IMG/VR virus record: IMGVR_UViG_3300048672_000522
Coordinates: 1 to 60,534 of that record
DNA length: 60,534 nt
Strand: one strand, 5' to 3'
Source: a virus
Lineage: Duplodnaviria; Caudoviricetes
Shown piece after piece: positions 1-60,534 of this stretch (the stretch's first letter is position 1; each line of letters starts with the position of its first letter). Under the pieces are notes generated by a model, which saw nothing but the letters and a program-made list of their open reading frames with translations, was not told the origin of the DNA and did no database searches. Position numbers and translations under genes: made by a program.

Positions 1-43
1 TAAAAAGCAACTATTCAAATAAACCATCAATCTGTTATGCTTC

Positions 44-685
44 TTATTTTAGAGAAGCGAAAAACTCTTGTAACATCTTGAACTTACGTTCCTCGGTTAG
101 ATGAGTCTTCTTGATTTCTTGTTGCATCTTTTCTACAACCTGGCCATTATCTAGTACTAGCCATTGCTGTGATTCATTAACTGCGTCTACAAAACAGTCG
201 ATGCCAGAAGGATCTGCCACAGCATCAATAGCCATAACAACATAGTCATCATTGACGAATGTAGAACCACTGCGCTCAGCCACGGTACCGAGACCGCGAG
301 TAGAAACACCCATCTGAACACCACCATTCAACAGACCCGCAAGAACTTGTCCTTGTGGAGTTTCCAGTACACGGGCTTTACCGTATACATCATTACCATC
401 AAAACGAAGTTCTGTGATCAAATGTGATGCCAGTTCTGGTTTTACTTGTGGTCGACCCTCTGGGTGGCTAATTTCGCCGAGTGCACGTTTTTTCTTCACA
501 TGATTTTCAATATAACCATTTATAGACTTTTCCATCACTGATTTTGGATAGATACGGCCGTTGCGGTTTTTCTTTTCTGCCTGGGCAAAGATTCCTTCAA
601 TGTAAAGGGATTTCTTTCCCGATGCATCGGCTTCCGTCAACAATTGAACATCTGCAAAATCAACCTATTCTCTTAAAAGCAACAT
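44..685 (-). CDS. gp21: Prohead protease (T4 gp21-like); 1 in-frame TAG at codon 7
   Basis: YIEGIFAQAEKKNRNGRIYPK, ALGEISHP, GVSTRGLG and DAVADPS motifs; ATG at 685 reached by reading through TAG. Confidence 0.95.
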
Positions 686-687
686 GA

Positions 688-1116
688 TTAGCTTCCTACT
701 ACTGTTACGTTGTCATATGAGCCAAACTCTGCAGTCTCGACCTTAGACTTATACCCTGCTGCTTTACGCAGAGTGATATATGCAGTGGCGTTTCCTACTA
801 CTGAAATGATTAGATCGGATGCTTCACCAGATGTTTCTGCAAATCCACCATTACCAGAAAAATCAAAAACATTACCATTATCAAATAGAGCAATGACTTG
901 ATTGCCACCACGTGTGATCGTTATTTTAGATGCGCCATTATCACCCTGGACCTACCACTGAATATGGTTGATCCAAACCTTGAACGGGCCAGGAGCAGTC
1001 TGAGATGATGCAAGCAAATCAGTAGCCAGAGTAATAGTCTCGTTAGTAGTACCAGTAAGACCAGAAACTTTTACAACGGAAACAGTTTCTGTATTTTTAA
1101 GAACTGATTTCGCCAT
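688..1116 (-). CDS. Conserved T4-like hypothetical (probable virion) protein, 142 aa, 1 TAG
   Basis: Absent from the ORF track; ATG 1116 to TAA 688 is open if TAG is sense (MAKSVLKNTETVSVVKV...LRKAAGYKSKVETAEFGSYD); fills the gap between neighbours. Confidence 0.8.
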
Positions 1117-1121
1117 TCTGA

Positions 1122-1676
1122 TTAGTCCTTAGCCAGACGATCTGAAACTTCTTCTTCGGATTCTTTATATGTGTGCAATCTATCCTTTGCATTCTTTTCT
1201 CCAGCAGATCTTTTATCTGCTTTAAACCCATATTTTTCAGCTCTGTCAATCATTGCATCTTTATCAGAACGAGATTTAAATTTAACGGTCTGTGATGCCC
1301 TATGTGCATTAGAAGAAAGTTTTGAATTATATTTGCCGTCTTCTCGAGCTTTATTGATATATGACTTTAGAGTATTTTGACTCAACTCATCCAGAGTAGC
1401 AAAATCTTCTGATTCCATGAACTCTTGAATTTCTTCCAGAGTATATTCAGACAGATCAAATTCTTCTGAAATACTGGAATCATCTGCATCTTCTACGATT
1501 TCTTCTTCTGTAGATTCAAAGACCAATTCTGGATTGAATGTGTTGTCAATCACTGCTTGACGATATGATTCAATCCCTTCTTGAATTTTCTCTGTCATGA
1601 GAGAGTCAAAAGTGGCCTGGATAGTAGCACTTTTGCCTGATTGAATTGTATTTACTAGATCGCGTGCTGTTGTCAT
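1122..1676 (-). CDS. Probable prohead core protein (gp67/gp68 position), acidic
   Basis: 184-aa acidic ORF between portal and protease; DELSQNTLKSYINKA segment; assignment from synteny. Confidence 0.6.
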   Translation of the reverse strand: MTTARDLVNTIQSGKSATIQATFDSLMTEKIQEGIESYRQAVIDNTFNPELVFESTEEEIVEDADDSSISEEFDLSEYTLEEIQEFMESEDFATLDELSQNTLKSYINKAREDGKYNSKLSSNAHRASQTVKFKSRSDKDAMIDRAEKYGFKADKRSAGEKNAKDRLHTYKESEEEVSDRLAKD

Positions 1677-1692
1677 GTTTATTCCTTAAAGA

Positions 1693-3222
1693 TTATGCCT
1701 GAGGTGGTTCTTGCATCATTGCTACTGGGTCAACAATATCACCAGATTTTATCTCGGCTTCCATTTGTGTATTTATTTCTTTGATTTCATCATCTGTAAA
1801 TCTGAGTACTTTTCTTTGTATATACTCTTTACTTACATACTTGCCGACAAATGGATCCAATTGCATAGCAGTCTGAAGTCTAGTATTCAATACTTCGTTT
1901 TCCTTCAGCTCAGCAAAGAAGTTATCCTTAGCGTAAGTGACTTTAATCTTCTCTTTGAATTGTTCCCAATCCTTGCTAGAGAAAATACCCTTAGAAATCA
2001 ATTGAATACGAAGTACATCCAAGAAGATATTACTGAATTTGCTTCTCAGTTTGCCAACAAATTTTGCAAATTTTACTTCATCTCTAGAAACAGTATCTGA
2101 TCTACCAATAGAGAAACCACTATCTGGGACGAATCTAGATTTGGGTACATTCAATGAACGATACAACTTGTCCTTGAAATAATCCAAATCATCCAATTGA
2201 CCGAGCCCCTGTCCACCTGGCAGTGTAGTAATTTCTGTGGATTTATCTCCACGGCGTGGCATCCAGAAATCTTCCATCATTGACAGGTGTCTCTTTGAAT
2301 CAGCAAGTTCACCGGTAACAGCATCATATGAGAGTTTGTTCTTGAACTTGTTCATCATATCGCTGACATACTGCTCGGCTTTACCTTTTGGTAGATTACC
2401 TACATCAATATAGAAAACTCTACGTTCTGGTGCGCGAGTATATCTGTAAATGATAACCGCTTCTTCCAACATTTTCAATTGGTTAGCAGGTTTAATGGCT
2501 TTATGCAGGTATGATTGGACTAATCCTGTCTGTGAGTCAATCAATCCAGAATGGCAGTAAACAACAGAGTCCACACTCAGTCTGACACCCTGACTAGTAC
2601 CATCTGCAATACCCTTGTCATTGTACATGTAGTATTCTTGTACTTCCTTGACGATCTCTACACTATTTGCCAATTTCTCTTTGATCACGTTCTTGATTTT
2701 CTTGACCTTACGAGGGTCAATCAATCGCAATTCTTTGATACCATTTGAATGATTTTCATCTAGAAGTATGTGGAAAAAGATCTTCCCATCAACATACCAT
2801 CTTTCAAATAATTCATAACCTTCTTCATTGAAATTCATCAATGTGAGAATTTTTTGGAATTCTTCTGTGACTTTCTTCTTGATTGACTCTGAGATTTTTA
2901 GTTCTTCAAGATTTATTTCTGCTGGCTTGTCATCACCTTCAATAATGATAGCCTCATTAACGATATCTTCAATGGCTTCTGCTACTTCAGGGTATCTAGA
3001 CAATTCTCTATATCTGCGAATAAGATCGATCTCATTCTTAATCTGACCATCTGGATCAAATGCAAGGGTATAAGAATCACCAAGAATACCATTGCCGAAA
3101 TTCTGATTGATAACAATAGAACCGTCTGCTAGGTCTGGAGGGACAACCGATTTAGGAAGTTGTTTCTCTTCCTCAGATCGTTTGATCTAGAACCCGAAAA
3201 AATTGAATAGTGGATTAGCCAT
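1693..3222 (-). CDS. gp20: Portal vertex protein gp20, 509 aa, 1 TAG (FGF*IKR)
   Basis: WYVDG, RAPERRVFYIDVGNLPKGKAEQY, MMEDFWMPRR motifs; start at ATG 3222 with GAGG/AGGA-free AT-rich leader after gp19 hairpin. Confidence 0.96.
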
Positions 3223-5937: not shown

Positions 5938-7275
5938 TTAGAAGTGAAACGTATCGGCTTCAGATTCTGTCCCATCAGAAAAGAATCCAGCAGGCATCAT
6001 TGCATCTTCTGTTTGTTTCTGCCTCAATTCAATAATTCTTGCTTTCGCCTACTAACTTGTCAATTCTGCCATAATACCCTGTGTAGTTAGGTAAGCGAAC
6101 AGAACAAGGGTCATAACTCTGTCATCATGTCCGTTCTCTGCTTCATATGAAGAACCTTTAAGAGCAAAGTTCTATAGTTCATACAGAATTTCTGAATCGC
6201 GGATAATCAGCTGATCATTCTCAATCAATGTCTTGAGGACAGAACAGCCTACTGATTTTGTTTTCTTTGTAGTTCTCAGGCCTGGTTTCTCTCCACCAAA
6301 TGCAGACATTTCACCTTTACTATCTGACATGATCACTTCTTCGTATTCATAATCATAGTACAGAGAAGATGCTATACTTTCACCGATATCATTCGTTTCT
6401 ACTAACACAGATGCATTATTGTATTTTCTAGCCAGATTCAATATGACACCTGGCAAAAGCAATGGGCTTACTTCATTATCTGCATACACAGCATCCACTT
6501 TATATGGGAGCTATGTGACATTAACAATAGTAAATGCAGAATAATCATTCCCAGTACCTCGAGCAGTATCCACATTCATGACATACTGATTGCCTGGCTT
6601 TGGTTCATCATATACATGAAGGGTGGGAGACACAGCTAGCGGTACTTCTACTGGTATAGCATTTATCTTTGAACCAGAAATCAATGTATTACTAGCACCC
6701 TGGAACTCACAATTCATTTCTTGTGCGAATTTAGATTCACCCAATACTGCTTTTTGGTCGTCTGCCCATTTCTGATCTCTGCCGGGTACATCCTACCAAA
6801 TAGCTTTAGTTAAGTTAAACCCGTTCAATCCCTATTCTGCATCCTTCACAAGTTTATAGAAATGGTTCATCCCGTTAGGTGTACTGATAATTGCAATCTT
6901 AGATTCTTTACCAGAAGAGATCGTCGGATATACAGAAGCAAAGAATTCATCTGCGGTATTATTTGGAACGAACGCGAACTCATCCAATAATAACATAGAG
7001 CAATTGTGACTTATTTCTGTGCCGGTAATATATTGATTGCCATTTGCTACATTAGAAAGATCATAAACCGTTTGTGTCTTTGAAATAGAATGTGGCAGCT
7101 CTCGTGCTTCTATCCATTTGCCATTTCTCATTACTCTATGATCTGGTGTACAGACAAGACCAGAATCAAGTTCTATAGTTTCTCTATCTTTTGTGATTAC
7201 AATGCCTGAGAAATCTTGCCAACCCTATGGAGTCAAGATTTCCCACTCACTAACATCAATTAGTTCTTGATTCAT
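5938..7275 (-). CDS. gp17: Large terminase C-terminal half, preceded by C-intein (91 aa, 7003-7275)
   Basis: MNQELIDVSEWEILTP*GWQDF...CTPDH...VYDL...SHN|C, then LLLDEFAFVP (Walker B), STPNGMNHFY, VDTARG and GHDD; several TAGs; ends at TAA. Confidence 0.93.
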
Positions 7276-8248
7276 TAAATTTCTTCTTTCTTCCATTCGG
7301 ATTACCATGTAACCACCCAGTTGGTTGTTGATCAGGGAAACACTGAACAATCTCCGCAATGTTCAGCGGGTTGTGATATATCTTTTTGCCCGCATTAGAA
7401 GCACCACCGATCTATTTGAGATATTCTTTTCTTTTCTCGCTCATCAATTTTTTCTATTCTTCAGATCTTTTTGAACCTAGATGTTTTTCGACAGACTTTC
7501 GAATCTTGTCTGGGTTTTTGTTGATTTTATCTGAGTGTTCCTTAGACTTTTTGACACCAGTTGTGTATTCTTTTCTTCTAAGAGAATCTTTTAATTGGAG
7601 ATATTCTGGTGGCCAATATAATGTACTATCCTTTTCTTTGAATTTTCTTCCTATTTGCCAGTTCTCATGTAGTATCGGAGCTATCTAATAATGCACTTTA
7701 CATATTTCTCCAGTTATAACATGATATACTGGTATCAATTCTTTGCCAGCACACTATTCAATTATAGATTTACTTCCTTTTTCTATCTATTCTTTGCTTC
7801 TTTTTGTGCCCTTTAGTCTACCTCTATTAGCTTTGCTAATCTTTTCTCTAACTTCGGGTCTTTTCTATGGATTTAATTCACCCTTAGAAGCATCTGTATT
7901 TGCTTGTCTGGCTTCAGAACAAAGAACGGCATATTCTTCTAATTGATTTTCAGTCAGTGTCTATAGTCTTTTTCTTCTTGTTTTGTTTACTTGATTAAAC
8001 TATGAAAGTGAAAAGCATATATTTCTATACTGAACTTTATCTCTATCTTTGTACTCTTTAAATGCTTTGTACAGAAACCAATGAGCTTTGAAATGATCTA
8101 GAACAGAGATTTTCTTAGTTATGTCATTTGGACCAAATATACACTTTGGATATATGTGGTGGTTCTCTCCTATTTCTACTATCTCAGAGGTCTCAATATG
8201 ATTGAAATATTTTTCTAACCATATATTATGAAAATTGAATTTGTACAT
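7256..8248 (-). mobile_element. Free-standing HNH-type homing endonuclease with NUMOD3-like repeats, 330 aa, 8 TAGs
   Basis: ENHHIYPKCIFG...DHFKAHWFL motif; GELNP*KRPEVREKISKANRG and GSKRSEE*KKLMS repeats; overlaps both terminase halves. Confidence 0.85.
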
Positions 8249-8882
8249 TTATATCTTCCTCATCACTAGATGAATTTGCATTCTGTCTATTTAATGATGA
8301 GAATTTTTCTATTGACAATTTCTTCACTTCCCCCGTTATTTTATTTCGCACAGTTATTTCGGTGTCACCGGCGACACAAGTAAAACCCCGAATTGCACTA
8401 GATGATGTAGAAGAAGCAAGAACTCTAGATCCATTTTCCAGAACGAAAGAACCTTTATTCCATTCCACTACACCTTGCTGGATCCACTTAGGTAATAATT
8501 CATATGCAAACTGTACACGTGAAAGAATTTCTCTTGCTGTAGAAGCTTTGTTAGCTAGAATTGCGGTTGTTTTGTGATCATTAAAAAGAATATACCAGCA
8601 CACGAATGCCGCGACAACCGTAGTTTTTCCAGCCTGGCGACAGATTACAGCTGCAGTCTTCCTGTTCTGCCATAGAGAATAAACAATATCTTCTTGATAT
8701 TTGAATAATTTCATAGGCTGTACACCATGGTCTACAGTAACAATTTTTACATAATTCTGGATAAAATAGATTGGATCATATTTGCACTTGATCCATTCTC
8801 CAATATTATTTTCTGACCATTGGATTTCAACTCCTGCCGCCTTTAGCTGAGGATTACCATTGTATGAATGTGGTTTCTACAT
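8226..8882 (-). CDS. gp17: Large terminase N-terminal half fused to N-intein (50 aa, 8229-8378)
   Basis: M*KPHSYNGNPQLK, DPIYFIQNYVKI, CRQAGKTT (Walker A), SSSAIRGFT|CVAGDTEITVR; ends at TAA. Confidence 0.93.
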
Positions 8883-18792: not shown

Positions 18793-21639
18793 TCAAGCCA
18801 CACGCATGTATTTCACTACACCTGCTTGCGGGGAGACATAGTTACCATTCTTGATGTAGTCGCCATTCAGACCACCGATAAAGTTACCGTTATAAGTGGT
18901 ATAGATCTTATCATCTCTGGTGTGAATACCAGTAGAGATGCCATCACGGTTAAAGCCGTGATCTCCTGGCGCCCCATTGTTTGCAGTATTGTAAGCATAC
19001 CCAAGATTACTTGAAACAATAGCTTTTGCTGTTCTAGATGTTTTTGTTAAACCGAATGTCGTGCCATCATCTCCAGATGTGAGAAGTTTGTCATCATATC
19101 TGATAAATAATTTCCCAGTAGATGAATCATATGAGCAGAAAATGGGTGAAGTATATGTTTTACCCGTGATCTAATACGTGCTGTCATATGCAGACAAAGA
19201 TCTTACTACCCAATTCGTTCCCAGATCTTGCTACATCGCAACTTGATATGCCCCAGTAATTGGCTGCTGTATGCTGCCAACCACTCTATATTCTGCTTGA
19301 CCGAATGTTAATACCAATTTACCCGTGTTTGTGAAACATGCACCAAACAACATATTGAACTGATAATTCACGCCGTCTGTAAATCTAGTATTCAATGCAG
19401 TCTATGATAAAGGTATTTGTCCAATTGTCCCATTAGAAAAATCTGTTGGGCTAAAAATGATAGAAGTATTATCACTTGAATATCCTGTTGACCCACCACC
19501 GAAACCGACTGGGCAGCTAAATGCGATATATGTGCCACCAGAAGGAGCATAAAATTCTTTCACAATTCTTAACTAAGCTTGATAACCTATTGTGCCACCG
19601 GCACCTTGGCCAGTAGCCAAAGTATAAACAGATGTCCAAGTTGCACCTGAATCTTTCTAGTTAAAGAATCTAAATCCTCCGAATGCAAAATCAAATACCA
19701 TGATATTCGAAGATGTTTGATTCTTGTCTGCAAAAAATTTCAGTGCTTGTGTGCTAGCTTGAAGATCTGCTACTCTAGTCCAAGAAGATAAATTAGAAGT
19801 TCTATAGATTCTTCTATCATCTGTCATCGTCTATAGTGTAGGATAGTTGATGAACTGTGATTGTGCATTAGACCCATTCGCTGTAGCATAGACATCACCA
19901 TTCTGCCCAAGTCCCGGGCAAGACCAAGACGCCATGTATGGCATAAAACCATACTACCAATTTGCCCCGCCGTCAGTGGTGTACAGATATTTTCGGAACA
20001 TACCAAACCCGTAGTGTGATGATCCAAAACCATTAAGAAACGATGTTCCGTTATAATCCGTTGCAAATCTATTAAGGTTTCCTGCCTATGCCTATGATCT
20101 AAGTCCAGAAAGAAGAACTGCACCTGCTTGTGCATCTGGGATACCAGGGAAAAGCAAAACCGTATTCTAGTTTTTCCAAAGAACTGTTTCTACAGTTAAC
20201 CCATCTGCTACTTGGTCTACTATAGTCGCAGTAGTGAATATGTTGGCAGTAGTGTAATTATAGAAGTTGATAAGTGGTCCATTTCCGCCACCACTTTGTG
20301 GTATTCCCCAGTTGATACCGTGCCAAGTACCACCAACATTTACTAGATCTCCCTGTATTGAAGTCGTGTAATCTACCTATCCGGTAGAAGTATGTTCAGT
20401 CCACGTTGTACCGTTAGTCGTCTTATAAGTCTTTCCACATCTGAACCATAGAGTAGTACCATCAAATAGAAAGGATGATTGAGGAGCAGAAATATATGCA
20501 CCCGTTCCCGTTTCCGATGTATTGTTAGATAGTCCAACACCAACCCAAGTGACACCATTGTCTGTACTGTACCAAAGTGCTCTATTATACAGAGTCGCAG
20601 TATAATATGTCATGCTTTGACCATATGAATTTAGTCCTGGATTTGCAGCGATGAGCACTGTACCAAAAGTTGTACACACCTACACTGTAGGTGGAAGAAA
20701 ACCCTAGAATAAAGCAGGTGGGGGTGTCGTAGGTAGTACCCAAGTAGATGTTGGGTCACCAGCTGTGACACATCTACGTATAACTTGTGCGCCGCAAGTT
20801 ATAATATAGACGCTGCCATTGTGAGCAATATCGGTCCATCTTTGTGATTCACCTACGTCAACAATTGACCATGTAATAGAATCAGACTACCAATACAAAA
20901 GTTGAGATGCCGTGCCCTGGAGTGCTCTAGGAGAATCTGCATATCTACTCAGTCCAACTGAAGCATAAGCAGTGCCGTTCTAGTTAAATGGTCCATCCTA
21001 TCCAGGTAGAATAAACATTCTGTTATTCACAACTTCTACATTGCCTACTCTTCCACCATAAGATATGTTAGCTATTAAAGTCCATGTAGAACCATTGTTT
21101 ATAGATCTATAGATATTACCGTTTCTAGTAACACACACAAAGGCACTATTAAAATAGAATAACCCGGCACAACCATATAGCGCTGCTGGATACTCATCTG
21201 ATGCAATTGTATCATTTACCCAGGGAGATGCAATATATTCATATGTTGCGCCAGAATCGGTAGAACGACAGAAGATCTAGCATCTAGTATTGTCGGCAGC
21301 AGCATTCCAACCCACTGGAAATCCAATGATCGTCGTACCATTGGCTGCCATCTTAAATGATGGGGGGTTTGATTGAAGACGACCTGAGTTATTCCAAGTA
21401 GTCAAACTGCCGATGTAAGGCAGTGGATACTTCTGCAAATTCTGCTTGATCTCTGCATTATAGATCTATCCGCGGATTGAAGCGGGCACCTGAGGATAAG
21501 TAGAACCCAGTGCAGAAACTCCAGATCTCAGGAACGTCTGACCGCCTGCTTCATACACGTTTGGTGCTTGATCGGGTATATCCACCATAGAACCAATTGG
21601 CACGCCGCCACCACCGAAGAATTGAGTTAAAGTGCTCAT
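18793..21639 (-). CDS. Large BNR/Asp-box repeat (beta-propeller-like) putative receptor-binding protein, 948 aa, ~18 TAGs
   Basis: Single frame ATG 21639 to TGA 18793; MSTLTQFFGGG start; STDSGATY, SINNGSTW, STDNGVTW and TTDGGANW repeats; ends YMRVA. Confidence 0.8.
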
Positions 21640-24982: not shown

Positions 24983-25171
24983 TTATCGGCTAGACAATAG
25001 TTGCAGAATCTTGTCTAGCTTATCCTCAAGATTTGCTAGTCGCTGCTCTGTCTCTTTTTCCTTCAAGTATTTATTAAGACCTTCTTGATCTTTCACTACT
25101 ATGCTACCATTAGGAGATTTGTAGACCCCAGAAAGAGGTCTACCAGATGTATCAACCGCCTGCTTGAGCAT
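24983..25171 (-). CDS. Small hypothetical protein, 62 aa
   Basis: ATG overlaps the upstream TAA; coiled-coil-like C-terminus. Confidence 0.65.
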   Translation of the reverse strand: MLKQAVDTSGRPLSGVYKSPNGSIVVKDQEGLNKYLKEKETEQRLANLEDKLDKILQLLSSR

Positions 25172-33908: not shown

Positions 33909-35635
33909 TCTACGATCTCCAAATGTTTTGTTAAGAAACCACCCTCAAAAAAAGAAGTCAATGTAACACTCTATATTGGGTAATTATAGTCATTATTTAT
34001 GTCATACCATGTATCGGATGTCCCAGAAACATCACCATATGAAAGATTTGGATCCCAGACCCCAAATTGAACATAGTCTACTAATCCAGACTTCGATACA
34101 TTCTTAGTAAGTGTTTCCGAAGAAGAAATATAATCTTCAAATATCTTTTCTACATGCTTGACATTAAAATCAAACGTCGTTGTATCATCAAACAGAACCA
34201 CATAATCAGAAGATATGCTTCTCTACCCTGTTATAGTATAATCAAAGTCGTTCATTCTTCTCTATTGAATGAACGACTTAGTTCCGGCAGGGTGGTTGAA
34301 TTTAATTATCTACTCTGCTTCTTTAAACTATTTCTATGTCTCAATAGTATACGAATAAGTCTGGTAATAGAAACTATCCTGAATGACGGATTGCGCATCA
34401 GAAATCAATCCAGTCCAATCATCGAATCTGCCATTGCTCTTTACGATGTATTCGAATTTCTAGACCAATACAGTTTCAGATTCTTTCCACTGTTCAATTG
34501 TGTAAGAATTGAAATCTGTGAAAAGGATTGGTTTAGTCTGACTTACAGTCTGGATAAATGCTAACGAACCATAATATGGGCCTGTTTCTGGTGCTTGATG
34601 CTGGTAATAATCTCCAGACAACATATATGTCTGAATCCATGAACCACCATCAATTACCTCCGTCATTCCTTCGACATCATCTAGAATATCAATTCTGTGA
34701 TGTTTTGTGATAGCACCTGTAGTGAAATTGAACTAATCAATCTCAGATGTTATATTGATATTTCCAGTAGGTGGCTTCTAGAATGGGTGAAGTGTGCACC
34801 ATGAATTTTCTAGCAATTCATAGCCATATTCTTTCACTTCTACAGTTTTAATCTGCCCTAAACCAGTTGAACTAAAAACTCTGCCGATTGTTGCTTTCTT
34901 AGATCCAGGTATCTCAAAGACCTGACCTTTTTGCCAATACTTACCACCTTTTTGTACATGAAAATGGCTGAAGGTCTTTTTAATGATCCCTTCATATACT
35001 TTAATACCATTTCGTTTAATCTGGAATTTCTGAAGATTACTCGCCGAAGTTGTGTCAATATAGAATTGCTGTCTAGAATCAAAGAAGATCAATGAATCAG
35101 AATCAGAGATAACTTCTACATTCTTTACGTTAATCTAGAAGCTACCTTTTGCATTAACCCAAGACAACTTGTCATACGGTTCAATTACAAATGCATCTGA
35201 TAATTTGTAAAGTGTCTATAAACGAATGTGATATTCCTGAGTCCAAGTAGACTCAGAAGCACGTAACATATTGTACTTCGGATATGCTACTTCAATTTCT
35301 TCACCAAATGCAATTCTGAATAAGAACTTCAGACATTTCTCAGTACCCTTATGTGAATATACTTCTGCTGCATTTCTTAAGAAATTGACAGTTGATATAT
35401 TTGGGAATGTAGGTACATCGATTGCAAATTGATTTCTGTAATGTTCAATGAAAACATCCAGATACTTTTCATCCAATGAGGAAGCAAGATCCAAATCAGT
35501 AGCATAATTCAACTTACCATTGAATGTATCTTCCTCAATGAATCTGTAGTATTCCTCTACGAATTGAATTAGATCCGGGAATTCTTCTCTAAAGAACTCC
35601 GGGAATCTATTGCTTGTTATCAGATTTGTTTTCAT
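33905..35635 (-). CDS. gp7: Baseplate wedge protein gp7-like, 576 aa, many TAGs
   Basis: FPEFFREEFP..IQFVEEYY, KGTEKCLKFLFRI, IQDSFYYQTYSY, HPAG. Confidence 0.75.
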
Positions 35636-37422
35636 TTAATAGATGAGAATGTCTTCGCCTGCACCTTATCATAATCAACATAAGTAAGAACTTCACAGTC
35701 TTGATAATCTATTTTCATAATCGTGTCTCTCAATGGAATAACATCATAAGATGACACAAATATATCAAACCAGAAACCATCATCATATAAACCAGAAATT
35801 GTGATGGCATCAGTCTTGATAATACCTTCTTTGAAATCAACAGATCCGATCTATTGAATGAATTGATCCACCCCTGATGGCAGAACTTCATATAGATCCA
35901 ATTTACCGGCAAGTGAATTCATTAAGAAGAAGGAATTGGAAGAACTAGGGAGATAAAATCTACTAGATTTAACAGACCCTGCTTTGATGTCAATAGGGTT
36001 ATTTAATCTCACTGAATATGTTTCAGATGTGCCAACGATAATAGTTACATACTGTTTGACATATACCTTAGTCAAATTACTAACAATACTGTAATCAGTA
36101 GAGTCAATCAGTTTAGTCAATGTAGAATATCTGAAACTCTTTTTCAATGAATTCAGAGAATTTACATAATTCAGAATACCATTCTTAATCAGCACAGAAA
36201 GATCATCTGCCGTCTTAGTTGTTTTGTCTGGGTTGAAATACACACCAGTCTTAATCACCAGATTAGTATATGTTGGATCAACGATAATAGGTTGAATAGA
36301 AAGCATTGATCTATTCGCCTTCAAGAATTCAACTATTTCATACTTCTCATCTGCAGTACATACATTTCTGTCAAATGGTTTCGCACAGATATACACAGAA
36401 CCATATCTTGGTGGATAATGATCTTCCCCACCCCAGACAGATACTGATTCTACAAATGGGAACTGTTGCAATATCTGTGAGATATAATCTTTGTCGGTCA
36501 CAGCTCTGTTCTGTGCAACATAATTACGAGGTGCATTATACTTTACAGACTCAATTGATTCTGCATTTGCGCCACCTGCAGATAATTGCAGAGTCGTTAC
36601 CTGATAAAGTGCATCGCCTCTGTATCCACCGGCGTAATAGAATTGACCGCAATTATTTGCTGCTTGTCCAGAAGAGGCATAATAATCCAGGTAAACAACA
36701 TTACCCGAATTTATAGCTTTACCCAAGACACCATTGCCGAAATAAACTTCATAGAAAAGATCTTCTCTTTGTTTGACAAAATAAACAGAATCTTGACTAG
36801 AAACAGATAATAGGCCCAATGATCTATTAAATGTCTGTGATGATATATTGCTTACCTATTCTTGAACTCGCACGGTCAGCGAAGTCATATCGGCATTCTT
36901 ATTTGGAATAACAAATGTAGTGCCAATTGAATTGACGTAACTGGTCTGGATATATGATCCTTCAATTACATCTACTTCAAATACAAACTTGCCATTTAAA
37001 AGTTCGGCCGTCTTAGCATAATAAGTCTGGAAAACATATTCATTGTCTCCAATGACACCTCGGAACATAGTCCCTTTTGGTAGAGTCAATTGTGTTGATG
37101 TAAGATTTTGTACTTCCTACATCTCAACTCTTACCTTTGCTCTGGCAGACGTAACAGATTTTGCAGTATAACCAATTGATTTAGCAAGGGAAACAACACT
37201 TGAATACTTACTTGCAGAATCAATAAATGACTCATTGAGAGCCATGTTTGTATACAACGAATGGTAATGCAGATTGTAAGCAAGAACATCGATTAAAGTA
37301 CTTAGAGCGGACCCCTCGAAGTTATAATCACTGAATGTAGCTTGACCTTGAAGGAATGTTTTAATGTTGGCTTTAATTCCGTCAAAATCCAACTAGTCTA
37401 CTTTGATAAGATTATTACTCAT
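35632..37422 (-). CDS. gp6: Baseplate wedge protein gp6, 596 aa
   Basis: LDFDGIKANIK, DYNFEGS, FGNGVLGK, AQNRAVT..DY, VWGGED. Confidence 0.92.
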
Positions 37423-37806: not shown

Positions 37807-40245
37807 TTATGCCTTTAACACAAATTTCCCACTGCCAATTGTCTTGTTGATTGCAGCATCAATTGTAAGATTTTGGCAACGATTATCACCTTCTTTGAAC
37901 TAGACATGGATCCATGTGCTAGCACCTTTGTATTCTAGAATCAATTGTCTATATGCAGGCAGTATCTTTTGAATCTCGATGATCGCCTGATAATGTTGTT
38001 CTCTAGAGAAACCTGACAGTTGAATATCAGCAGCACATCCAATCAAGTGATCCGATGTTTTCTAGCCACCTATTTTACTATTTACGGCCTCTGATCTCCA
38101 AGTGTTTGTGATTCGCATATTAGGGAACTTAGCCTTAATAGGATTCAGACAGTTGACTGTCAACTTCTTGAGGTTACACACGATCTCGGAAGCAGTCTTG
38201 CCGTAGTTCTTGCCTCTAGGATAACCAGAACTTCCCGTTAGAACATCGCCAAGTTTGAATAGTGATGACAATTGATATTGCGGAACGATGTCAGCATCAG
38301 TCAGATTTTCACATTCTGTTGCTAATGGTTTAGGTGTCTTTTCTTCTGCCACAGTTTCTTCCTTTGCATCACCTGTTGCCTCTTGAGTCTCATCCTCATC
38401 GAATTCCTTGGCGTTTCTCACCTGGAATTCTGCTGGAGATCCTTCCTCTGGGGTCTCATAGTTTGCATTGAACATTGCTTTTCTGGTAGGAGTTGTGAGC
38501 AAAGGTAGGTCAATTTTACCGCCAGGTTCTTCTGTCGGAATTTCCAGCCCCCCTACTTTTCTGCCAGAGTTTAGGTGAATTTTCTATCCTTCCAATGAAG
38601 TCTCACCTGCGGATTCTTCCATGAATGACCCATCTGTTTTAAGACTGATACCTTCACTTGCATGCAGTGCAAAATTCTTACCCACAGCGAGAGTGTAATT
38701 GCCAGTGACCTCGGTTTTCATATCACCAAGAACTTGTAATTTTGCATCATTCTCTACTCTAATGTTGGCGTCACCGACTACAGTGAGATTGCAATTTCCC
38801 TTGATGAAAATGTTTCCATCTCTGTCCAGAATCTCGTACGAATCTCCAACGATTCTAGTGACCTTCGTACCGTTAACATCAATCTCTTCATATGTGCCAG
38901 ACTTGTGCCATCTATGGAGTCTCTCGTTTCCCTTAGAATCATCAAACTCCTCGATATGCCCACGCTCTGTCATCCTGACATGGTTGTTTGGCCAAGTTGG
39001 ATTGTATGGTACCGGCGGTTGTTTCCATGTCTTACCAGATGCAGTCTTTACCTATTTGATTCTACTTGCATCTTTTCTGGCAACAATGGTCTCATTAATG
39101 TTCTCTGCTCTGGCAAGACGGTTAGAATCAGGTTCATTCTTATCTCTGGGATAAACACCATTTGGATCTTTAAATCCTTCTCCAGTGCTAGACTGCTGAG
39201 TAAAGGTAGGAGGTTTGACCCATCTACCAGCTTCTTTTTGTGTTTTTTCTTCTGTCAGAACTTGATCTGGCGTCTTGTCGATCTTGCCTTCTGAGTTCGG
39301 GAAACCATCTCTCTCAAACCATTCGCGTTCTTTGGCACGTCTGTTACCGAGATTCTTCGCATATGTCATCGGAATCAATGCTGCAGCCTCATCATATCTA
39401 CCTGAATTCAGTGATGAGAAGAACTGAGACTTGATCAGTCTTGGGTAACCGATGTTATATGCCATCTAGACTACAGCCTCAAACATACCCTGAGTCACAG
39501 GAGCAGAAAGATTGCGTTTGATAGCAGCAACAAATTCCTTGTTCAGCTTGTTCTTGAACAGATCAATACATTGTGCCTTAGTCAGAACGGCCCCGGATCC
39601 TACTCTGGAATTGTCCAGCAGATAAGTAGAACCGAAGCCAATAGTCCAGACATTGTTTATGTCTTGGTATGCATAGATTCTAGTCTCATCTGGTATGTTT
39701 TTCCAGTTCTTCCGATAGTCGTTTCTGCCCGCAGTCAGTGATGACAGTGCTTCTTCATCCATAATGAACATCTCTCCAGCATCGGTCATTGAGAGTTCTT
39801 GTGGGTACTTTAGTGTGTCCGGAGTTGTGTCACCAGAAATAACAGGGTTACCATAGCCATCTGTTACCGGATTTCCACTCTAGTCCGTTACTACGGAGCC
39901 TGTACTATCTCTTGGCACAACTGGTTGGTCAGAAACTTCCTGACTAGTGTTATCAGGAGATTCAAACGGCACGCCGGCTATAGAACCTAAGATGATAGGC
40001 TGCTGGCGATGTTCATCCGCGAAGGCGATTGCCACCCATGATCCTTCTACTAGCCCCAGCGGGGTCTGACCAACTCCACTCACACCAGCAGATGTGATGT
40101 CTTGGATCGGCATTGCCCATGGTAAATCTGTAGTCGGCAGTTCTGCTTTATTCTCAGAATGGACACCGAAAACTCTTACTCTGCATCTGCCGATCTTGAA
40201 TTTATCATTTGTACTTCTTTGTTCAACTACACCAAAATAAATCAT
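37807..40245 (-). CDS. gp5: Baseplate hub/tail lysozyme gp5: OB-fold + lysozyme + beta-helix + peptidase M15-like domain, 812 aa
   Basis: GRCRVRVFGVH..LPWA; YQD...WTIGFG...FEAVV*MAYNIG...RRAKE; GHIEEFDDSKGNERL; GG*KTSDHLIGCAADI...WIHV*F. Confidence 0.9.
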
Positions 40246-43382: not shown

Positions 43383-43820
43383 ATGGCAAAATTTCATCAA
43401 GGTAAATACAGTCTCAAGAACCCTGACAAGTATGTGGGAGACAAGTCAAAAATTTTTTTCCGGTAGTAGTGGGAAAAGAAATTCATGTCATGGGCAGATC
43501 AGAATCCCGGAGTAATCAAGTGGAACTCTGAGGAATTAGTAGTTCCGTATATGAGTCCAGTGGACGGATTGCAGCACAGATACTTCGTAGATTTCATGAT
43601 CATGGTCAAGACTCGGCAAGGTGAGATAAAGAAATATGCAGTAGAGATCAAGCCAGAAGCACAGACCGTCCCACCTAAACCTAACAGGAACAAAGTCCGA
43701 TACCTGAATGAATCCGCTACATATGCCATCAATCAAGCGAAGTGGGAAGCGGCATCAAGATTCTGTAATAAGATGGGGGTTGAATTTGTTGTACTTACAG
43801 AGAAACATTTAAAAGTCTAA
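43383..43820 (+). CDS. gp4: Head completion nuclease gp4 (TnsA-like), tandem TAG TAG
   Basis: KNPDKYVGD...FR**WE...WNSEE..VPY.SPVD...HRYFVDF...VEIKP...NQAKW. Confidence 0.93.
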
Positions 43821-43821: not shown

Positions 43822-44409
43822 ATGGCAGGACAGAACAAGAAAACAGTATTCGAGTTATCAAGAATCAACGCGGAGGAAGTTAAAAAGTCCTCCGCGTGGT
43901 TTGACGAGCAAGTAAAAAGACTGTCGTCAAAAAAGATAACACCGAACAGAGTTATGAATGAAGCAGGGATGCATCTGACAAGTCGATTAGTACCAGGAAA
44001 GATGTACTTCTACTTTTACAATCCCAAGTTTAAAGAAACTCTACCTTTCTATGACCAGTTCCCACTTGTGCTACCATTTGCAAAAACTCAGGGTGGTTTC
44101 ATTGGGCTGAACATGCATTATCTTGACTACAAGATGCGCATGGCTCTGTTTCAGAATTTACTAGAGACGGCAGGTGCGAAACATCTGACTGAGACTACAA
44201 AGATCAAATATTCATGGGCAACGGTAGCTCAAGCTTCGAGATTGGCTCCAGCGCAGGCATGTGTAAAACAATATCTCACAGAACATGTAATGTCACCATT
44301 CTGTGAAGTACCACCAGAATTTTGGCACACTGCACTGATGTTACCAGTGCAAAGATTTGTTGGTGCAAGTAAAGAAACAGTTTGGAAAGAAAGTAGGAAA
44401 TACAGATGA
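43822..44409 (+). CDS. gp2: DNA end protector gp2
   Basis: PGKMYFYFYNPK, LPFYDQFPLV, GLNMHYL, CVKQYL. Confidence 0.92.
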   Translation: MAGQNKKTVFELSRINAEEVKKSSAWFDEQVKRLSSKKITPNRVMNEAGMHLTSRLVPGKMYFYFYNPKFKETLPFYDQFPLVLPFAKTQGGFIGLNMHYLDYKMRMALFQNLLETAGAKHLTETTKIKYSWATVAQASRLAPAQACVKQYLTEHVMSPFCEVPPEFWHTALMLPVQRFVGASKETVWKESRKYR

Positions 44410-45779: not shown

Positions 45780-46188
45780 AGCTATAAGTGAAGTTTTTGA
45801 TGTTGAACCATACCAGCAACCCACCCCACAGGCACCTATGGTTCAGGGAGACGAGATTTAGCATGATGCAGAGTACGCATCCGATAACATCAGAAAACTT
45901 ATTGAAATTGGCATGGGTGCGGTAGAGGATGCAGCATCAGTTGCTAGAGATTCAGAATCTCCCCGAGCATATGAAGTAGTTTCTACTATGATCAAGAATC
46001 TGACTGACATGAACTTGCAATTGATGGATATCCACGGGAAGAAACAAGATCTAAATAGAGGTAACGGAACCACACCTCAACAAGGTGTTGGCAATGTGAC
46101 AACGAATAATGCGTTCTTTGTAGGAACGACTAAAGATCTTAATGAATTGATTATGAAAAGGATGTCTGGAAATGGCGACACAATCTAA
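45772..46188 (+). CDS. gp16: Small terminase subunit gp16, 138 aa
   Basis: ARDSESPRAYEV, TNNAFFVGTTKDL. Confidence 0.88.
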
Positions 46189-46891
46189 ATTAGCAAATAT
46201 AAATGTTTCACCTCTGTATGATGTGATTATACCATAGACTCAAGAAAAAGTAAAATTTCGCGCTTACAATGTAAAAGAAGAACGCGCGCTGTTGACGGCA
46301 GACGAATCGGGTGACGGGTCTGTCATGATCTAGACACTGAATCAAGTCGTTCTCAACTGTCTCAATCCGGCACCAAAATCATTAACATCATTTGACCTAG
46401 AGTATATCTTTTCCCAGATCAGATCTAAATCTGTTGGAGAAGTAGCAGTAATCAAGATCGGATGCGACGAAGCGGAGTGTAAAGATGTCTCAATCGAGTA
46501 CAGATATGATCTATCTCAGTTGCAGGTAATCTTCCCCGAGGGTATCTCTAAGACAATCAAACTATCGGATACCATCGCCGTGAAGATGAAATATCCGTCT
46601 GTGGAAGATTCTCTGCGCATTGAGTTTATTCAATCAGAATCTGACAAGAAGTATGAAGCGATCAAGTCATCTATTGATCTGATCTATCACGGCGATGAGG
46701 TAATTCATGTCGATGAAGAACCACCACAAGCAATCGTAGAATTTATCGACGGTTTGAATCCACAGTCATATAGAAAACTAGAAGGTTTCTTTGAAGAGAT
46801 GCCTTATCTGGAAGGTGAATTGAAATATCGCTGCACAAAATGCAGAAAAGATCATACTAAAAAGGTAAGAGGTCTGGCTAATTTTTTCTGA
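46172..46891 (+). CDS. gp26: Baseplate hub subunit gp26, 239 aa
   Basis: IP*TQEKVKFRAYNVKEE, FDLEYIF.QIRSKSVGE, MKYP, GLANFF. Confidence 0.9.
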
Positions 46892-49681: not shown

Positions 49682-50608
49682 TTACTCACCAATACTCTTA
49701 AAATACTGCTCAATGTCGTCTTCGCCGGCATCTGGTTCTGCTTGAGGAGCAGGTTTGGCTTTTGTCTGAACTTTTGGTTCAGCAACAGTCTTACCTTGTG
49801 CCTTAGGAGCAGCAACAGGCATCGAGGACATGGACTCTGCAACTTCCTCAGCAGTCTTAGTACCTGCAGGAGTTCCATTCATGACGGATTCAAACTTACG
49901 CTTGAGCTCATCGTATGACTTGAACTTGGCAGGAGCAATCAGTTCCTTCAGTGGCTGCATTTTGTTGAGAATTTCAACGATTTCTTCATCAGAGCCGGCG
50001 ATAGGAGCAGGATCAGCGAACTCAGACTTGTCGTAGTTAGGATAACCTTCTACTTGACGCATGCGGAGTTTGAAGTTTGCACCTTCGAACGGATCGAATG
50101 GGTTCAGCGGCTTCTCATCTTCGAATGTTGGGTTGGCGGATTCCATCAACTTTTCAAAGATTTTCTTGCCGAACTTGAACTTCATCACACTTCCTTCCAA
50201 TTCTGGCTTACCTGGGCAAGACACAATCAGAATGTTTGCAATGTAGTTCAGGCGACGCTTGGATTTGCGAGCAGATTCTTTGTCTGCTTCCAATCCGGTC
50301 TTCCACAGAGCAGCATTGTGCTCGGAGACTGGATCTGCTTCACCCAAAGTGGTGCGGCTGTTCTCAATGTACCAACGACCGGTAGGGCCTTGGAAAGCAT
50401 GGTTGTAAATGCTCACCCATGGTAGTTCGTCATCGGGGTGTTTTGGCAGGAAGCGAATGACAGCAGAACCGTTACCGGCTTTGTCACGTTCCAATTTGAA
50501 GAAATCATCGTTATCATCCTTCTCGTACTATGTAGTCTTTTTCAAGGCTTGTTGCAGAGAAGCGAAGTCGCCACGTGATTTTCTTAGATCTCCAAGTGAA
50601 AAGCTCAT
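49682..50608 (-). CDS. gp32: Single-stranded DNA-binding protein gp32, 308 aa, 1 TAG
   Basis: DKAGNGSAVIRFLP, WYIENS, FGKKIF, GANFKL, NYDKSEF, acidic tail. Confidence 0.96.
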
Positions 50609-50734
50609 TTTATTTTCCTTTAAGTTAAAGCGGACTTGCCGCTACAATTATAGTGCATATAGCACTTCTGATAAGAGGTTTTCACCCTCTGCACTTATTT
50701 ATTCTATCAAAATCTCGATAGAAGTAAACAGTGC

Positions 50735-54928: not shown

Positions 54929-55891
54929 TCAAACCTTCCAAACAAATTTAGACTCATCCCAATCTCTAGCATATTCCCTCTACATCCCCTAAAAGAAATC
55001 ATTGAACGTATAATCATTGATCGCTTTATAGAACCAATCAGAGATTGGATCATATGTCACATCAAACAAAGATTGGAAACCAAGTTGCTTGAAGCATTCA
55101 TTGATTCTTGCTTTGACAAAGTTCTTCAACTGTTTGGCTGTGATACCGTCCTGAGTACCTTTTTCAAAAACCATATCGATGATTTCATCTTCATGTTCGA
55201 AGATTTTAAGAGCAGCTGTTGTAATTTTACCCTTCAGTGATTCCCATTGTTCTGCATTCAGACCTGCATTCTTGGCCTTAACCTTGAAGGCATAAGCAGA
55301 AGCGAGTGCGTGGAGATTTTCATCACGTAGTGAGAAATTGATACCGCGAACGACATTCAGCAGTTTATTTTTACCCTGAGATTGGAAGTGTTTCAAGTAT
55401 GCGAAGGCAGAATAAAGAACGACACCTTCGACCATAGAGAAAGTAGCAAGAGCAGCGAGTTCATCTTCTTCAGAAATGATCTGTGCAATATGCTCCATAC
55501 GTTCTTTTAGTACGGGGTTGTCCAGATACTACATGTAGAAGTTTTCATCATCAAGATGCAACAATTGGTTGATCTTATTGTAGAACGGACCGTGAACGGC
55601 AAGTTCAAACATTGCAAAAGTAGAAGCCATCCGGTGCCATTCCACACCATCAAACATCTCCTTGAATCTACCACCCCACCATTCGTCTCCGGCATGAGTT
55701 TCATACAACTAGAATAATTTCAATGTAGTAATCACACCGTGCTTTTCCGCTGGGGTGAAATTTACCAACACATCCTGAATATCTTTTTCTACATTAACTT
55801 CTTCTGGTAACCAAAATATCTTGAGTTGTTTGTCCGTAAACTATTGTGGAACTGGATCCGTATCGATCGGGATTAAGTGTTTTGCTAGCAT
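54929..55891 (-). CDS. nrdB: Ribonucleotide reductase class I beta subunit, 320 aa, 5 TAGs
   Basis: FWLPEE, ELAVHGPFY, EGVVLYSAF, RDENLH, NDFF. Confidence 0.93.
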
Positions 55892-59057: not shown

Positions 59058-59060
59058 TTA

Positions 59061-59426
59061 TTACTCCCAGAGAGTTGTTTTGTTATCACCTAGATATTTC
59101 TTAGCAAGACCTAGTGAAATTAATTGTTTGTTAATTGATGGTGCATCTAAATCTAGATTGATATCAGCCAACCATCTTCCATATTTATCGGTCTTCGTCG
59201 ATAATATTGTAACTTGTTTATTCAGAATTTGATCTACTAAGAACTGCTTAGCCTAAGATGCAATTGATTTAATTTCAGAACTTTTCTAATTTAGTTCTGG
59301 TGTATCAATGCCATTTAATCTAAATCTTATTTTTGTCTGCACACTGAAACCTAGATCAACAATAGCATCGACTGTGTCACCATCTATTATCTTAGTAATT
59401 GTAGCAGTGTAGATATAATTGATCAT
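59061..59426 (-). CDS. Staphylococcal nuclease (thermonuclease) family protein, 121 aa, 2 TAGs
   Basis: IIDGDTVD..VDLGF...RLNGIDTPE...DKYGRWLA; missing from the ORF track. Confidence 0.88.
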
Positions 59427-59797
59427 AGTTTTCTTAATTTTTCGATAATGACTTCATCGAGTTTTATATCTGTTATAGGAGTTTTTCCAGAAATCAGATA
59501 ATTTGGAGATAATCTGTTGAGAAATATAAGATATGGGATCAATGTTCCCCATTGATGGCTTTCTATCTTATAAAACACCATATCCAATGTGGAATTTCCA
59601 AATATATTAAAACAAATAACTAGATGGTTCAGAACTAGACGTTCATTGCTAGCTCCTGAACCATCAAGATACTTATTGAATATCTTTTTAATGTGAGAAA
59701 ACCTATCGAGATCCTATTTGAACTCATCCACAGATATACACTGTGGATTATCATATGAGTGCAAAGCAAGTTGGAGAAAGGTTTTCTCATTCATCAT
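59423..59797 (-). CDS. Conserved T4-like hypothetical protein, 124 aa
   Basis: YDNPQC..DEF.*DL...ERLVLNHL..CFNIFG. Confidence 0.75.
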
Positions 59798-59810
59798 ATA
59801 GCAATCAGAA

Positions 59811-60383
59811 TCAAGCTACTGTCAGTTCAGCACCCTTAGATGTGACTTGAGCAGTGCTAGCGGCATTGGTAATTACACAGCGATACTTGACACCATTCAG
59901 ACCGGTAGAATTAGAGATATTCAGTGTAGCAGTAGTTGCTGTAGAATACACCCCACCATTAGCAATGTTTGCATATGCTGCAGCACCAGTCTTTTGTTGC
60001 CACTGATACGTAGCACCAGCAGGCACAGAAACGACCACACCGAATGTTGCCGCGGCAGGAGCTGTCACACTTGCTGCACTTGGTTGTGTGGTAATAGCAA
60101 ACTCGACATCAGCAACCACCAAGTCATCTGTAGCATCACCAGACTTAGAATTGAGAGCTGTAGCATTAGCAAGAGCAACCAAGCACTCCATAAACGTGCG
60201 CTGATTGCCACCAGCTTCATCTTTAGTCTTGATCAGGTACCAGCCTGGACCTTTGATACCTTTTGCCTTGTTAGAAGCCAGTGCTGCTTCTTCAGAAGAG
60301 ACGAAGAATGCCTTTGCTGCATCTTCAGCAGATAACCACTTTGGTTTAGAGATTTCTGCATCTGTTACGCCGAATAGTGCCAT
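59811..60383 (-). CDS. Ig-like domain virion protein
   Basis: ITTQP...TYQWQ...TLNI...KYRCVIT Ig-fold signature. Confidence 0.75.
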   Translation of the reverse strand: MALFGVTDAEISKPKWLSAEDAAKAFFVSSEEAALASNKAKGIKGPGWYLIKTKDEAGGNQRTFMECLVALANATALNSKSGDATDDLVVADVEFAITTQPSAASVTAPAAATFGVVVSVPAGATYQWQQKTGAAAYANIANGGVYSTATTATLNISNSTGLNGVKYRCVITNAASTAQVTSKGAELTVA

Positions 60384-60413
60384 TTTGTTTTCCTTTCAGT
60401 CCGTATTGAACTA

Positions 60414-60534
60414 TTATTCTTTGATGAGGTTTTTGCCGATAAGTGCGGCATAACGTTGGATATTTAGGTCTTCAGTTGATTCATTGTTCGGTTCATATTT
60501 CTTGATGATCTTGTGGCCACCGGCTCTAGAACCA
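60414..60534 (-). CDS. 3' end of a gene truncated by the window edge
   Basis: Open frame ...GHKIIKKYEPNNESTEDLNIQRYAALIGKNLIKE-TAA. Confidence 0.5.
   Translation of the reverse strand, partial: GSRAGGHKIIKKYEPNNESTEDLNIQRYAALIGKNLIKE

Follow-up and report, generated by a model that had tools for sequence, protein, structure and literature searches.

Serine-inserting amber suppressors include E. coli supD (Su1) and T4 psu1+, a mutant T4 tRNA-Ser, the latter being phage-encoded. To our knowledge, no NCBI translation table assigns TAG to serine. In the gut phages of code 15, such as the crAss-like and Lak phages, TAG is reassigned to glutamine (10.1101/2021.08.26.457843; PMC9523058). For phages whose code differs from that of the host, the account given by Borges et al. 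names only TAG-to-Q and TGA-to-W changes, and an argument on the susceptibility of synthetases is built there on this pattern (10.1101/2021.08.26.457843). One passage of a 2015 review (PMC4695839) credits Ivanova et al. (2014, Science 344:909) with phages in which UAG is reassigned to serine and which carry a Ser-tRNA(CUA). Phage annotation pipelines, as described in PMC11210395, consider only codes 4, 11 and 15, with table 15 considered by Pharokka-gv and related tools. Here we analyse 60,534 nucleotides of viral DNA (Duplodnaviria; Caudoviricetes), namely positions 1 to 60,534 of the IMG/VR record IMGVR_UViG_3300048672_000522. This whole stretch, referred to below as the window, is estimated by CheckV to represent 35% of a genome. 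It belongs to a T4-like phage in which, with a probability of about 0.9 on the sequence evidence, UAG is read mainly as serine.

TAG is a sense codon throughout the window, and TAA and TGA are the sole terminators. Under code 11, open reading frames (ORFs) with a minimum length of 150 aa account for 0.51 of the window. Their cover is 0.90 when TAG is read as sense, while the same treatment of TGA or TAA yields only 0.66 or 0.65, respectively. A curated set of 61 genes, drawn from the TAG-sense ORFs, occupies 0.97 of the window. These genes contain 172 in-frame TAG codons, spread over 43 of the 61, and not one in-frame TAA or TGA. They terminate in TAA (35 genes) or TGA (26 genes). Neighbouring genes overlap at 16 same-strand junctions, by 1 nt in eight cases and by 4 nt in the other eight. 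The genes for the portal, the large terminase (TerL), the gp5-like protein, NrdB and the single-stranded DNA-binding protein (SSB) each become continuous once TAG is read through, and the TAG codons are evenly distributed along the genes, with 12-23 in each decile. An earlier note on this DNA had described TAG codons inside essential genes whose fragments join in frame, as well as genes that end in TAA or TGA and often overlap the next start. Both descriptions hold for the curated set. If read as serine, TAG accounts for 172 of the 1,688 Ser-type codons of the window (10.2%), the others being TCT (629), TCA (328), AGT (221), TCC (143), AGC (115) and TCG (80); the Gln codons number 389 (CAA) and 310 (CAG).

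The count of 172 is probably a slight overestimate, since at least one start was called too far upstream. The called ORF at 44382-45779 begins upstream of the start common to all of its homologues (MSDAK...), and its first TAG (codon 5, within 44382-44405) probably lies outside the true gene. The TAG codons near the 5' ends of 8226-8882 and 49682-50647 may also lie outside the true genes.

A scan of IMG/VR based on the tail sheath protein returned 72 loci, with the TAG signature present in only three and absent in the other 69. When TAG is taken as sense, the ORF cover rises from 0.60 to 0.90 at L001, from 0.59 to 0.76 at L022 and from 0.29 to 0.94 at L021. L001 is carried by a contig of 79.7 kb (G001). 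A second scan, with the protein encoded at 27678-31022 as the query, returned only G007, a contig of 97.3 kb with the same IMG dataset number. G001 and G007 abut at about 16.8 kb of the window and share 127 identical bases at their far ends, and they look like a single genome of ~177 kb. This sister genome is about 84% identical to the window at the nucleotide level, and TAG is present in 38 of its 39 five-kb bins, the exception being G001 75-80 kb (0/1329 codons). In a quick maximum-likelihood tree of the sheath, comprising 44 rows and leaving out L022, L041-L072 and rows covering fewer than 420 residues, the window groups with L001 and L021 (SH-aLRT 99), and this group is sister to four standard-code contigs. 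The recoded clade is thus nested among standard-code IMG/VR contigs, and the grouping of its rows is consistent with the recoding having arisen only once.

The in-frame TAG codons might be ascribed to sequencing or assembly errors, or to a decaying genome. No sign of either was found, and the separately assembled sister genome keeps 70 of the TAG positions, which makes an assembly artefact unlikely. The recoding signature recurs in L021 and L022, the 61 genes are free of in-frame TAA and TGA, and Logan contigs from the sequencing run X1, which may be the source sample, show zero differences from the window over 43300-46775. Another run, X2, contained short parts of the window only, and the stretches without cover were given no interpretation; no RNA data set was listed among the runs with matches. 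The probability of an artefact is accordingly negligible.

The amino acid that TAG stands for can be read from codon exchange between the window and the sister genome, for which 16,401 codons were aligned in their true reading frames. The window contributes 122 aligned TAG codons. Seventy of them face TAG in the sister, 31 face Ser codons (TCT 22, TCA 6, TCG 2, AGT 1), and the rest face Gln (6), Ala (4), Thr (3), Asn (2), Glu (2) and Val, Gly, Leu and Arg (1 each). In the other direction, the TAG codons of the sister face Ser 35 times (TCT 14, TCA 11, TCG 6, TCC 3, AGC 1), Gln 16 times (CAG 14, CAA 2), Ala five times and other residues 14 times. Both directions together give 122 changed pairs, with Ser in 66, Gln in 22 and Ala in nine. 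When the changed pairs were scored with substitution frequencies from the same alignment, Ser was the best model, and Gln, Ala and Thr were worse by 163.8, 196.6 and 222.4 ln units, respectively. Two base changes separate TAG from TCT and TCA, and the ranking of the Ser partners follows Ser codon usage, which indicates conservation of the amino acid rather than mutational adjacency. The more distant recoded locus L021 has 17 aligned TAG codons, which face TCT (6), GCT (2), TAG (2), AGT (1) and otherwise singletons in the window, with zero Gln.

These exchanges also bear on glutamine, the meaning of TAG in NCBI table 15 and thus in the crAss-like and Lak phages. Of the non-Ser codons, CAG faces TAG most often, in 19 of the 122 changed pairs. 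However, CAA, the commoner of the two Gln codons in the window, faces TAG only three times, and only 2% of genuine Gln codons have Ser opposite them in the sister, as compared to 54% Ser among the changed TAG pairs. Given also the difference of 163.8 ln units, we regard glutamine as a very improbable reading of TAG.

Conserved columns lead to the same amino acid. The 61 proteins, with X at each TAG, were aligned by tblastn to standard-code relatives, consisting of five complete phages, five long IMG/VR contigs and other sheath loci. Among the columns with at least four references and at least 90% of one residue, TAG occupies four of the 49 Ser columns (8.2%) and none of the 26 Gln columns; it is equally absent from the T (54), A (59), N (65), D (122), E (92), K (83), L (104), Y (102) and W (22) columns. 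At a threshold of 75%, the eight columns holding TAG comprise S 5, E 1, Q 1 and D 1, and favour Ser over Gln by 12.3 ln units. The occupancy of 8.2% in the Ser columns is close to the share of TAG among the Ser-type codons, which argues for faithful decoding as serine. In TerL, TAG 6172 lies in a Ser column (S60/64) where the sister has TCA, and TAG 6793 lies in another (S44/59) where the sister has TCT. TAG 27007, in the phrog_358 structural protein, stands in a column with S in 6/6 ungapped references. For the tandem TAG in the gp4-like gene, the sister reads AGT TCT, while the reference residues are S5/5 for the first TAG and L2 S2 N1 for the one after it. A pooled residue tally over six-frame ORFs had given an ambiguous likelihood between Ser and Gln, with Q as the second residue at 14-22% of cells, a point for glutamine. 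This tally suffered from antisense frames and from pseudo-replication (58-64 references near the sheath versus 1-7 elsewhere), and the pooled tallies were replaced by the true-frame, one-vote-per-site analyses.

The earlier note had listed 13 sites, all of which are indeed TAG in the coding frame, as serine positions on the basis of family motifs. The sister has a Ser codon at seven of them (6793, 39466, 42562, 43464, 43467, 51787 and 55709) and TAG at five, and one is unaligned. Within the gp5-like hub, for instance, the sister carries TCG at 39466 and TAG at 38062 and 37900, and within NrdB it carries TCT at 55709 and TAG at 54989. The reference columns back serine at 6793, 43464 and 46235 (5/5 at the latter two). 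The portal site 3187 fails as a serine motif, with Q22 E10 S7 K6 T5 among the references. The two NrdB motifs likewise found no backing, since homologues in the PDB show E or A at the last position of NDFFx and T or A at that of LKLFx; these homologues are too distant to inform the TAG sites.

A candidate decoder is encoded in the sister genome. Its tRNA cluster, with 13 tRNAs by ARAGORN and 13 by Rfam, ends in a 90-nt tRNA with the anticodon CUA (L085:17520-17609, + strand). This tRNA(CUA) belongs to class II, with a 6-bp variable-arm stem and a 16-nt insertion at the variable region. The acceptor stem is GGAAGUU/AACUUCC (G1-C72, G2-C71, A3-U70), the D-stem contains C11-G24, the CCA end is encoded, and the D-arm resembles that of tRNA-Ser. 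The G1-C72 and G2-C71 pairs are described as conserved in bacterial tRNA-Ser, and SerRS, the seryl-tRNA synthetase, as ignoring the anticodon (both in PMC9976931). Among 14 long-arm tRNAs of related phages, the two nearest are tRNA-Ser (61% and 57%). A blastn search with the tRNA(CUA) matched 25 phage records, comprising 16 tRNA-Ser, three tRNA-Tyr (partial), one tRNA-Leu and five unannotated ones; all four of the full-length annotated matches are tRNA-Ser, as is the one match in E. coli. Thus, the only tRNA with the anticodon CUA is a Ser-like class II molecule rather than a 75-nt tRNA of the Gln type, which is a further point against glutamine.

Bacterial Leu and Tyr tRNAs share the long variable arm, and the three partial tRNA-Tyr matches and the single tRNA-Leu match could speak for one of these residues. 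Pyrrolysine is suggested by ARAGORN, which names any CUA tRNA 'tRNA-Pyl'; we rejected this label, as it reflects the anticodon alone. The Leu and Tyr tRNAs of the related phages all have A73 and a D-arm unlike that of the sister tRNA(CUA). A73, which is critical for Leu and Tyr tRNAs according to PMC9976931, is missing from it. In addition, Leu appears in two of the 122 changed pairs and Tyr in none, and no conserved Leu or Tyr column holds TAG. It is therefore extremely unlikely that TAG encodes Leu, Tyr or pyrrolysine. The assignment to serine rather than glutamine, the central claim of the earlier note, is supported by codon exchange with the sister, by the occupancy of conserved columns and by the apparently Ser-like class II tRNA(CUA) of the sister.

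Several observations tell the other way. Gln is over-represented among the partners of TAG, at 22/122 as compared to 0.9% for ordinary Ser codons. The gene at 44382-45779 has three standard-code homologues in a large protein database, at 70-80% identity, and nine of its TAG sites were compared, one of the 10 being upstream of the aligned start. At these sites, P0001 (80% identity) has Q 4, S 3, A 1 and N 1, and P0002 (78%) has Q 4, A 2, D 1, N 1 and S 1, so that each of the two nearest homologues shows Q at four of the nine; P0003 has S 5, Q 1, N 1, L 1 and M 1. TAG 26812 in the phrog_358 protein, the one counter-example of its kind, lies in a Gln column (Q6/7) and faces CAG in the sister. Any ungapped reference is available at only 67 of the 172 TAG sites, and eight of the sites are in conserved columns (75%). 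No tRNA gene was found in the window, and the tRNA(CUA) is known only from the sister, at 84% nucleotide identity. Moreover, its discriminator is U73, where 4/4 tRNA-Ser of related phages have G73, and G73 is reported, in PMC9976931, to be a moderate determinant in E. coli and a strong one elsewhere.

The excess of Gln may reflect CAG-to-TAG transitions, that is, Q-to-S changes at tolerant sites. CAG becomes TAG by a single transition and is four times as common as TCG, so that such changes would be the source of many TAG codons, while a path from TAG through TCG to TCT would supply the synonymous traffic. The rarity of CAA opposite TAG fits this explanation and not the reading of TAG as glutamine, and so does the absence of TAG from every strongly conserved Gln column.

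In the mechanism that we propose, UAG would have been reassigned from stop to serine genome-wide in a small T4-like clade. A phage-borne tRNA with the anticodon CUA, derived from a tRNA-Ser, would be transcribed by the host RNA polymerase. The host SerRS, which reads the long variable arm and the acceptor stem and ignores the anticodon, would charge it with serine, and the resulting Ser-tRNA(CUA) would outcompete the host release factor RF1 at UAG, aided by an A after the codon, while UAA and UGA keep their role as terminators. As the tRNA would need only transcription and host processing, suppression could start at once. The part of the genome that lies beyond the window would carry the same tRNA(CUA). 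We infer that the host SerRS charges it despite U73 and that RF1 is overcome in this way.

The decoding context agrees with competition at UAG. The base after TAG is A in 48% of cases, as compared to 20-54% for the other six Ser codons and ~30% for these pooled (Fisher p 6e-6), and the base after the true stop is T in 32/61 genes. In E. coli, suppression of UAG is favoured by a following A, and release by a U that follows the stop codon. The bias towards A after TAG and T after stops thus suggests selection under competition with RF1. TAG occurs in NrdB and SSB besides the structural genes, and, together with its presence in all but one bin of the sister, this indicates that there is no early block in the standard code as in the late-gene switch model. 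The RF-1 domain had no match in the window or in both sister contigs (controls matched in 10/14 genomes), nor did the class II synthetase core carried by SerRS (controls 14/14 genomes). Of the decoding components that the earlier note had pointed to, a Ser-like tRNA(CUA) is thus present in the sister, while neither a release factor nor a SerRS gene was found in the window or the sister.

Decoding might also be ambiguous, with UAG read mostly as Ser, a substantial share going to Gln through a near-cognate host tRNA-Gln or to termination by RF1, and TAG confined to sites where either is tolerated. The excess of Q at variable TAG sites would fit such a situation, as would the finding of no RF1 antagonist or release factor gene, and U73 might lower the specificity of charging. 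Furthermore, ten genes of at least 150 aa, including those for the sheath, the tube and NrdA, are without any TAG, as would fit a slow or leaky codon being kept out of genes with high expression. On the other hand, conserved Ser columns are occupied by TAG at almost the overall rate (8.2% versus 10.2%), and heavy termination is at odds with the even spread of TAG along genes and with as many as 18 in a single gene. We therefore consider substantial ambiguity very unlikely, although some ambiguity may occur, and retain serine as the main meaning of UAG.

The gene content is that of a T4-like myovirus, with a T4-type portal, sheath, large terminase, gp5 hub, baseplate wedge, gp32-like SSB and NrdAB. 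Pfam identifies the portal, sheath, TerL, gp5-like hub/lysozyme, NrdA and NrdB, and PHROGs identifies the prohead protease, sheath stabiliser, neck/adaptor, baseplate wedge subunits, tube cap, head closure, baseplate hub and gp32-like SSB; the identities proposed in the earlier note hold where examined. The best named matches of the sheath are in the Pelagibacter phages HTVC008M and Mosig and the Methylophilales phage Melnitz, at 52-56% identity. The features are listed in Table 1.

Table 1. Features of the window (positions in the window) and, in the last row, IMG/VR contigs with a class II tRNA(CUA)
Feature	Position or locus	Strand	Evidence and in-frame TAG
Prohead (head maturation) protease, gp21-like	44..685	-	phrog_207, E 3e-66; 1 TAG at 665
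Portal, gp20-like	1693..3222	-	PF07230, E 1e-173; 1 TAG at 3187, variable column
Tail sheath, 664 aa	3887..5881	-	Pfam; no TAG
Large terminase C-terminal piece, after intein C-end	5938..7359	-	Pfam; 7 TAG
Homing endonuclease ORF between terminase pieces	7256..8248	-	phrog_655; 8 TAG in 330 codons
Large terminase N-terminal piece, intein N-end-like tail	8226..8882	-	phrog_5989, E 1e-57; 1 TAG
948-aa ORF, no known family	18793..21639	-	no Pfam match; 18 in-frame TAG, most of any gene
Structural protein	25171..27669	-	phrog_358; TAG at 27007 and 26812
Baseplate wedge, gp6-like	35632..37422	-	phrog_219, E 4e-142; 4 TAG, that at 36856 in Ser column S5/6
gp5-like baseplate hub, lysozyme and M15 peptidase domains	37807..40245	-	Pfam; 6 TAG
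Head closure, gp4-like	43383..43820	+	phrog_218; tandem TAG TAG 43464-43469
Baseplate hub, gp26-like	46172..46891	+	phrog_150; TAG 46235 in Ser column S5/5
ssDNA-binding protein, gp32-like	49682..50647	-	phrog_224, E 1e-100; 2 TAG, one near N-terminus
Ribonucleotide reductase large subunit (NrdA), 578 aa	53205..54941	-	Pfam; no TAG
Ribonucleotide reductase small subunit (NrdB)	54929..55891	-	Pfam; 5 TAG, 31% of its Ser-type codons
14 further contigs	L165, L170, L171, L173, L176, L177, L183, L185, L187-L190, L192, L194		IMG/VR

The terminase gene (5938-8882, - strand) is fractured, and the endonuclease ORF is in another frame than the flanking pieces. The arrangement resembles a split intein whose halves are separated by a free-standing endonuclease; over 7075-8317 of the window (~1,240 bp), the counterpart in the sister genome measures only ~400 bp. 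The stretch from 17.8 to 21.7 kb is unaligned in the sister, and the 948-aa ORF within it is variable, rich in TAG and adjoins tail-fibre-like genes.

The tRNA region of the sister holds further elements. A permuted (two-piece) transfer-messenger RNA (tmRNA) lies in the cluster at L085:13257-13522 (RF04321, 94.7 bits versus a gathering threshold of 47), with ANADTFLMAA as its tag peptide by ARAGORN; its presence in a phage with a recoded stop codon may be relevant to ribosome rescue or to the identity of the host. A match to the catalytic group I intron is located at L085:14657-14849 (RF00028, 66.4 bits). The tRNA at L085:10036-10111 is called 'tRNA-Stop (tta)' by ARAGORN, while the Rfam model gives the anticodon UUU with C33 in the loop CCUUUAA. 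The loop is ambiguous, and an odd tRNA-Lys is favoured over an ochre-reading tRNA, given that TAA terminates 35 of the 61 genes of the window.

To look for similar tRNAs elsewhere, IMG/VR was scanned with a motif in which a Ser-type D-arm precedes a CUA anticodon loop. The scan returned 32 loci and, besides G001, 15 of them carry a CUA tRNA of 84-90 nt, most with G73 and one other with U73. An exact anticodon-arm pattern had mostly retrieved 73-77-nt CUA tRNAs of other phages, which have no bearing on the serine question. One of the 15, G009, is an IMG/VR contig of 61,947 bp (L196-L199; GC 0.38) from an unrelated myovirus with terminase, portal and sheath. Its ORF cover rises from 0.43 to 0.89 with TAG as sense, so it is heavily recoded. 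Its sole tRNA (6730-6819, - strand) is a 90-nt Ser-like tRNA(CUA) with G73, 81% identical to that of the sister and the closest to it. G009 may thus represent a second lineage in which TAG means serine; a scan for relatives of its terminase returned only the G009 contig itself. The 14 further contigs carry class II tRNA(CUA) of 84-89 nt with a Ser-type D-arm, at a GC content of 0.41-0.55, and most of these short loci lack a clear local recoding signal. A 435.8-kb phage with terminal repeats and 67 tRNA matches (G008) has a 91-nt class II tRNA(CUA) of different sequence with A73 (L151:8018-8108); locally, reading TAG as sense raises the ORF cover only from 0.89 to 0.97, a weak sign of recoding. 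The sheath protein had no match in five other records with a class II tRNA(CUA), an empty answer that carries no weight.

Taken together, the data sketch a T4-like clade, from a freshwater metagenome run, with genome-wide UAG-to-Ser reassignment through a phage tRNA-Ser(CUA) bearing an unusual U73 and without a phage release factor or synthetase. They also sketch Ser-type amber suppressors scattered in unrelated phages (15 further contigs including G009), and TAG-to-Ser as a recurrent phage code missed by gene callers limited to codes 4, 11 and 15. We put this composite picture forward tentatively, at somewhat less than even odds. If true, a recurrent TAG-to-Ser code would run counter to the idea that GlnRS and TrpRS are the only synthetases open to co-option when phages recode a stop codon. 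Since SerRS ignores the anticodon, serine should be the easiest reassignment, and this clade indicates that it happens in a T4-like lineage. A phage with TAG as Ser that is annotated with codes 4, 11 or 15 would appear fragmented, or would be given Gln at ~10% of its serine positions. T4-like phages lend themselves to genetic work and cultured relatives exist, so that such a lineage would offer a way to test how host RF1 is overridden without a release-factor gene of the phage's own. The case also offers a test of whether recoding that is genome-wide, rather than confined to late genes, serves regulation, defence evasion or neither.

Compared with the described systems, the clade is closest in code to the phages of Ivanova et al. 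(2014), with which, as they are described in PMC4695839, it shares UAG as Ser and a Ser-tRNA(CUA), here the Ser-like one of the sister genome. Unlike those phages, which encode RF2 according to the same passage, it has no RF2 that we could find in the window or the sister. Phrase searches of the literature for TAG, UAG or amber to or as serine returned nothing relevant, and broader searches gave only the PMC4695839 passage; supplements, which possibly list Ser-recoded contigs, were not covered by them. The novelty implied in the earlier note was therefore overstated, given the credit to Ivanova et al. in that passage.

With the code 15 phages, as they are presented in the sources cited above, the clade shares a phage-borne CUA suppressor tRNA (in the sister), TAG in essential genes and presumably a standard-code host, and it differs from them in decoding TAG as Ser rather than Gln and in using a tRNA of class II. 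It also departs from the late-gene code switch set out by Borges et al., as TAG is genome-wide in the sister and early genes are not TAG-free. As in supD and psu1+, a tRNA-Ser with the anticodon CUA, charged by SerRS, would read UAG as Ser against RF1. However, those suppressors are laboratory mutants that act on occasional nonsense mutations, whereas here the suppressor appears fixed, with TAG at ~10% of the Ser-type codons. HTVC008M, Mosig and Melnitz, placed in Kyanoviridae in their records, share the T4-like structural and nucleotide-metabolism gene set with the window, but, unlike its clade, they use the standard code. Reassignment of UAG to serine, a rare variant beside the TAG-to-Gln recoding usual in phages, is hence not unprecedented, its kind having been reported once, in 2014, and largely forgotten since; the present case adds a well-documented member, in a T4-like lineage and with recoding across the genome.

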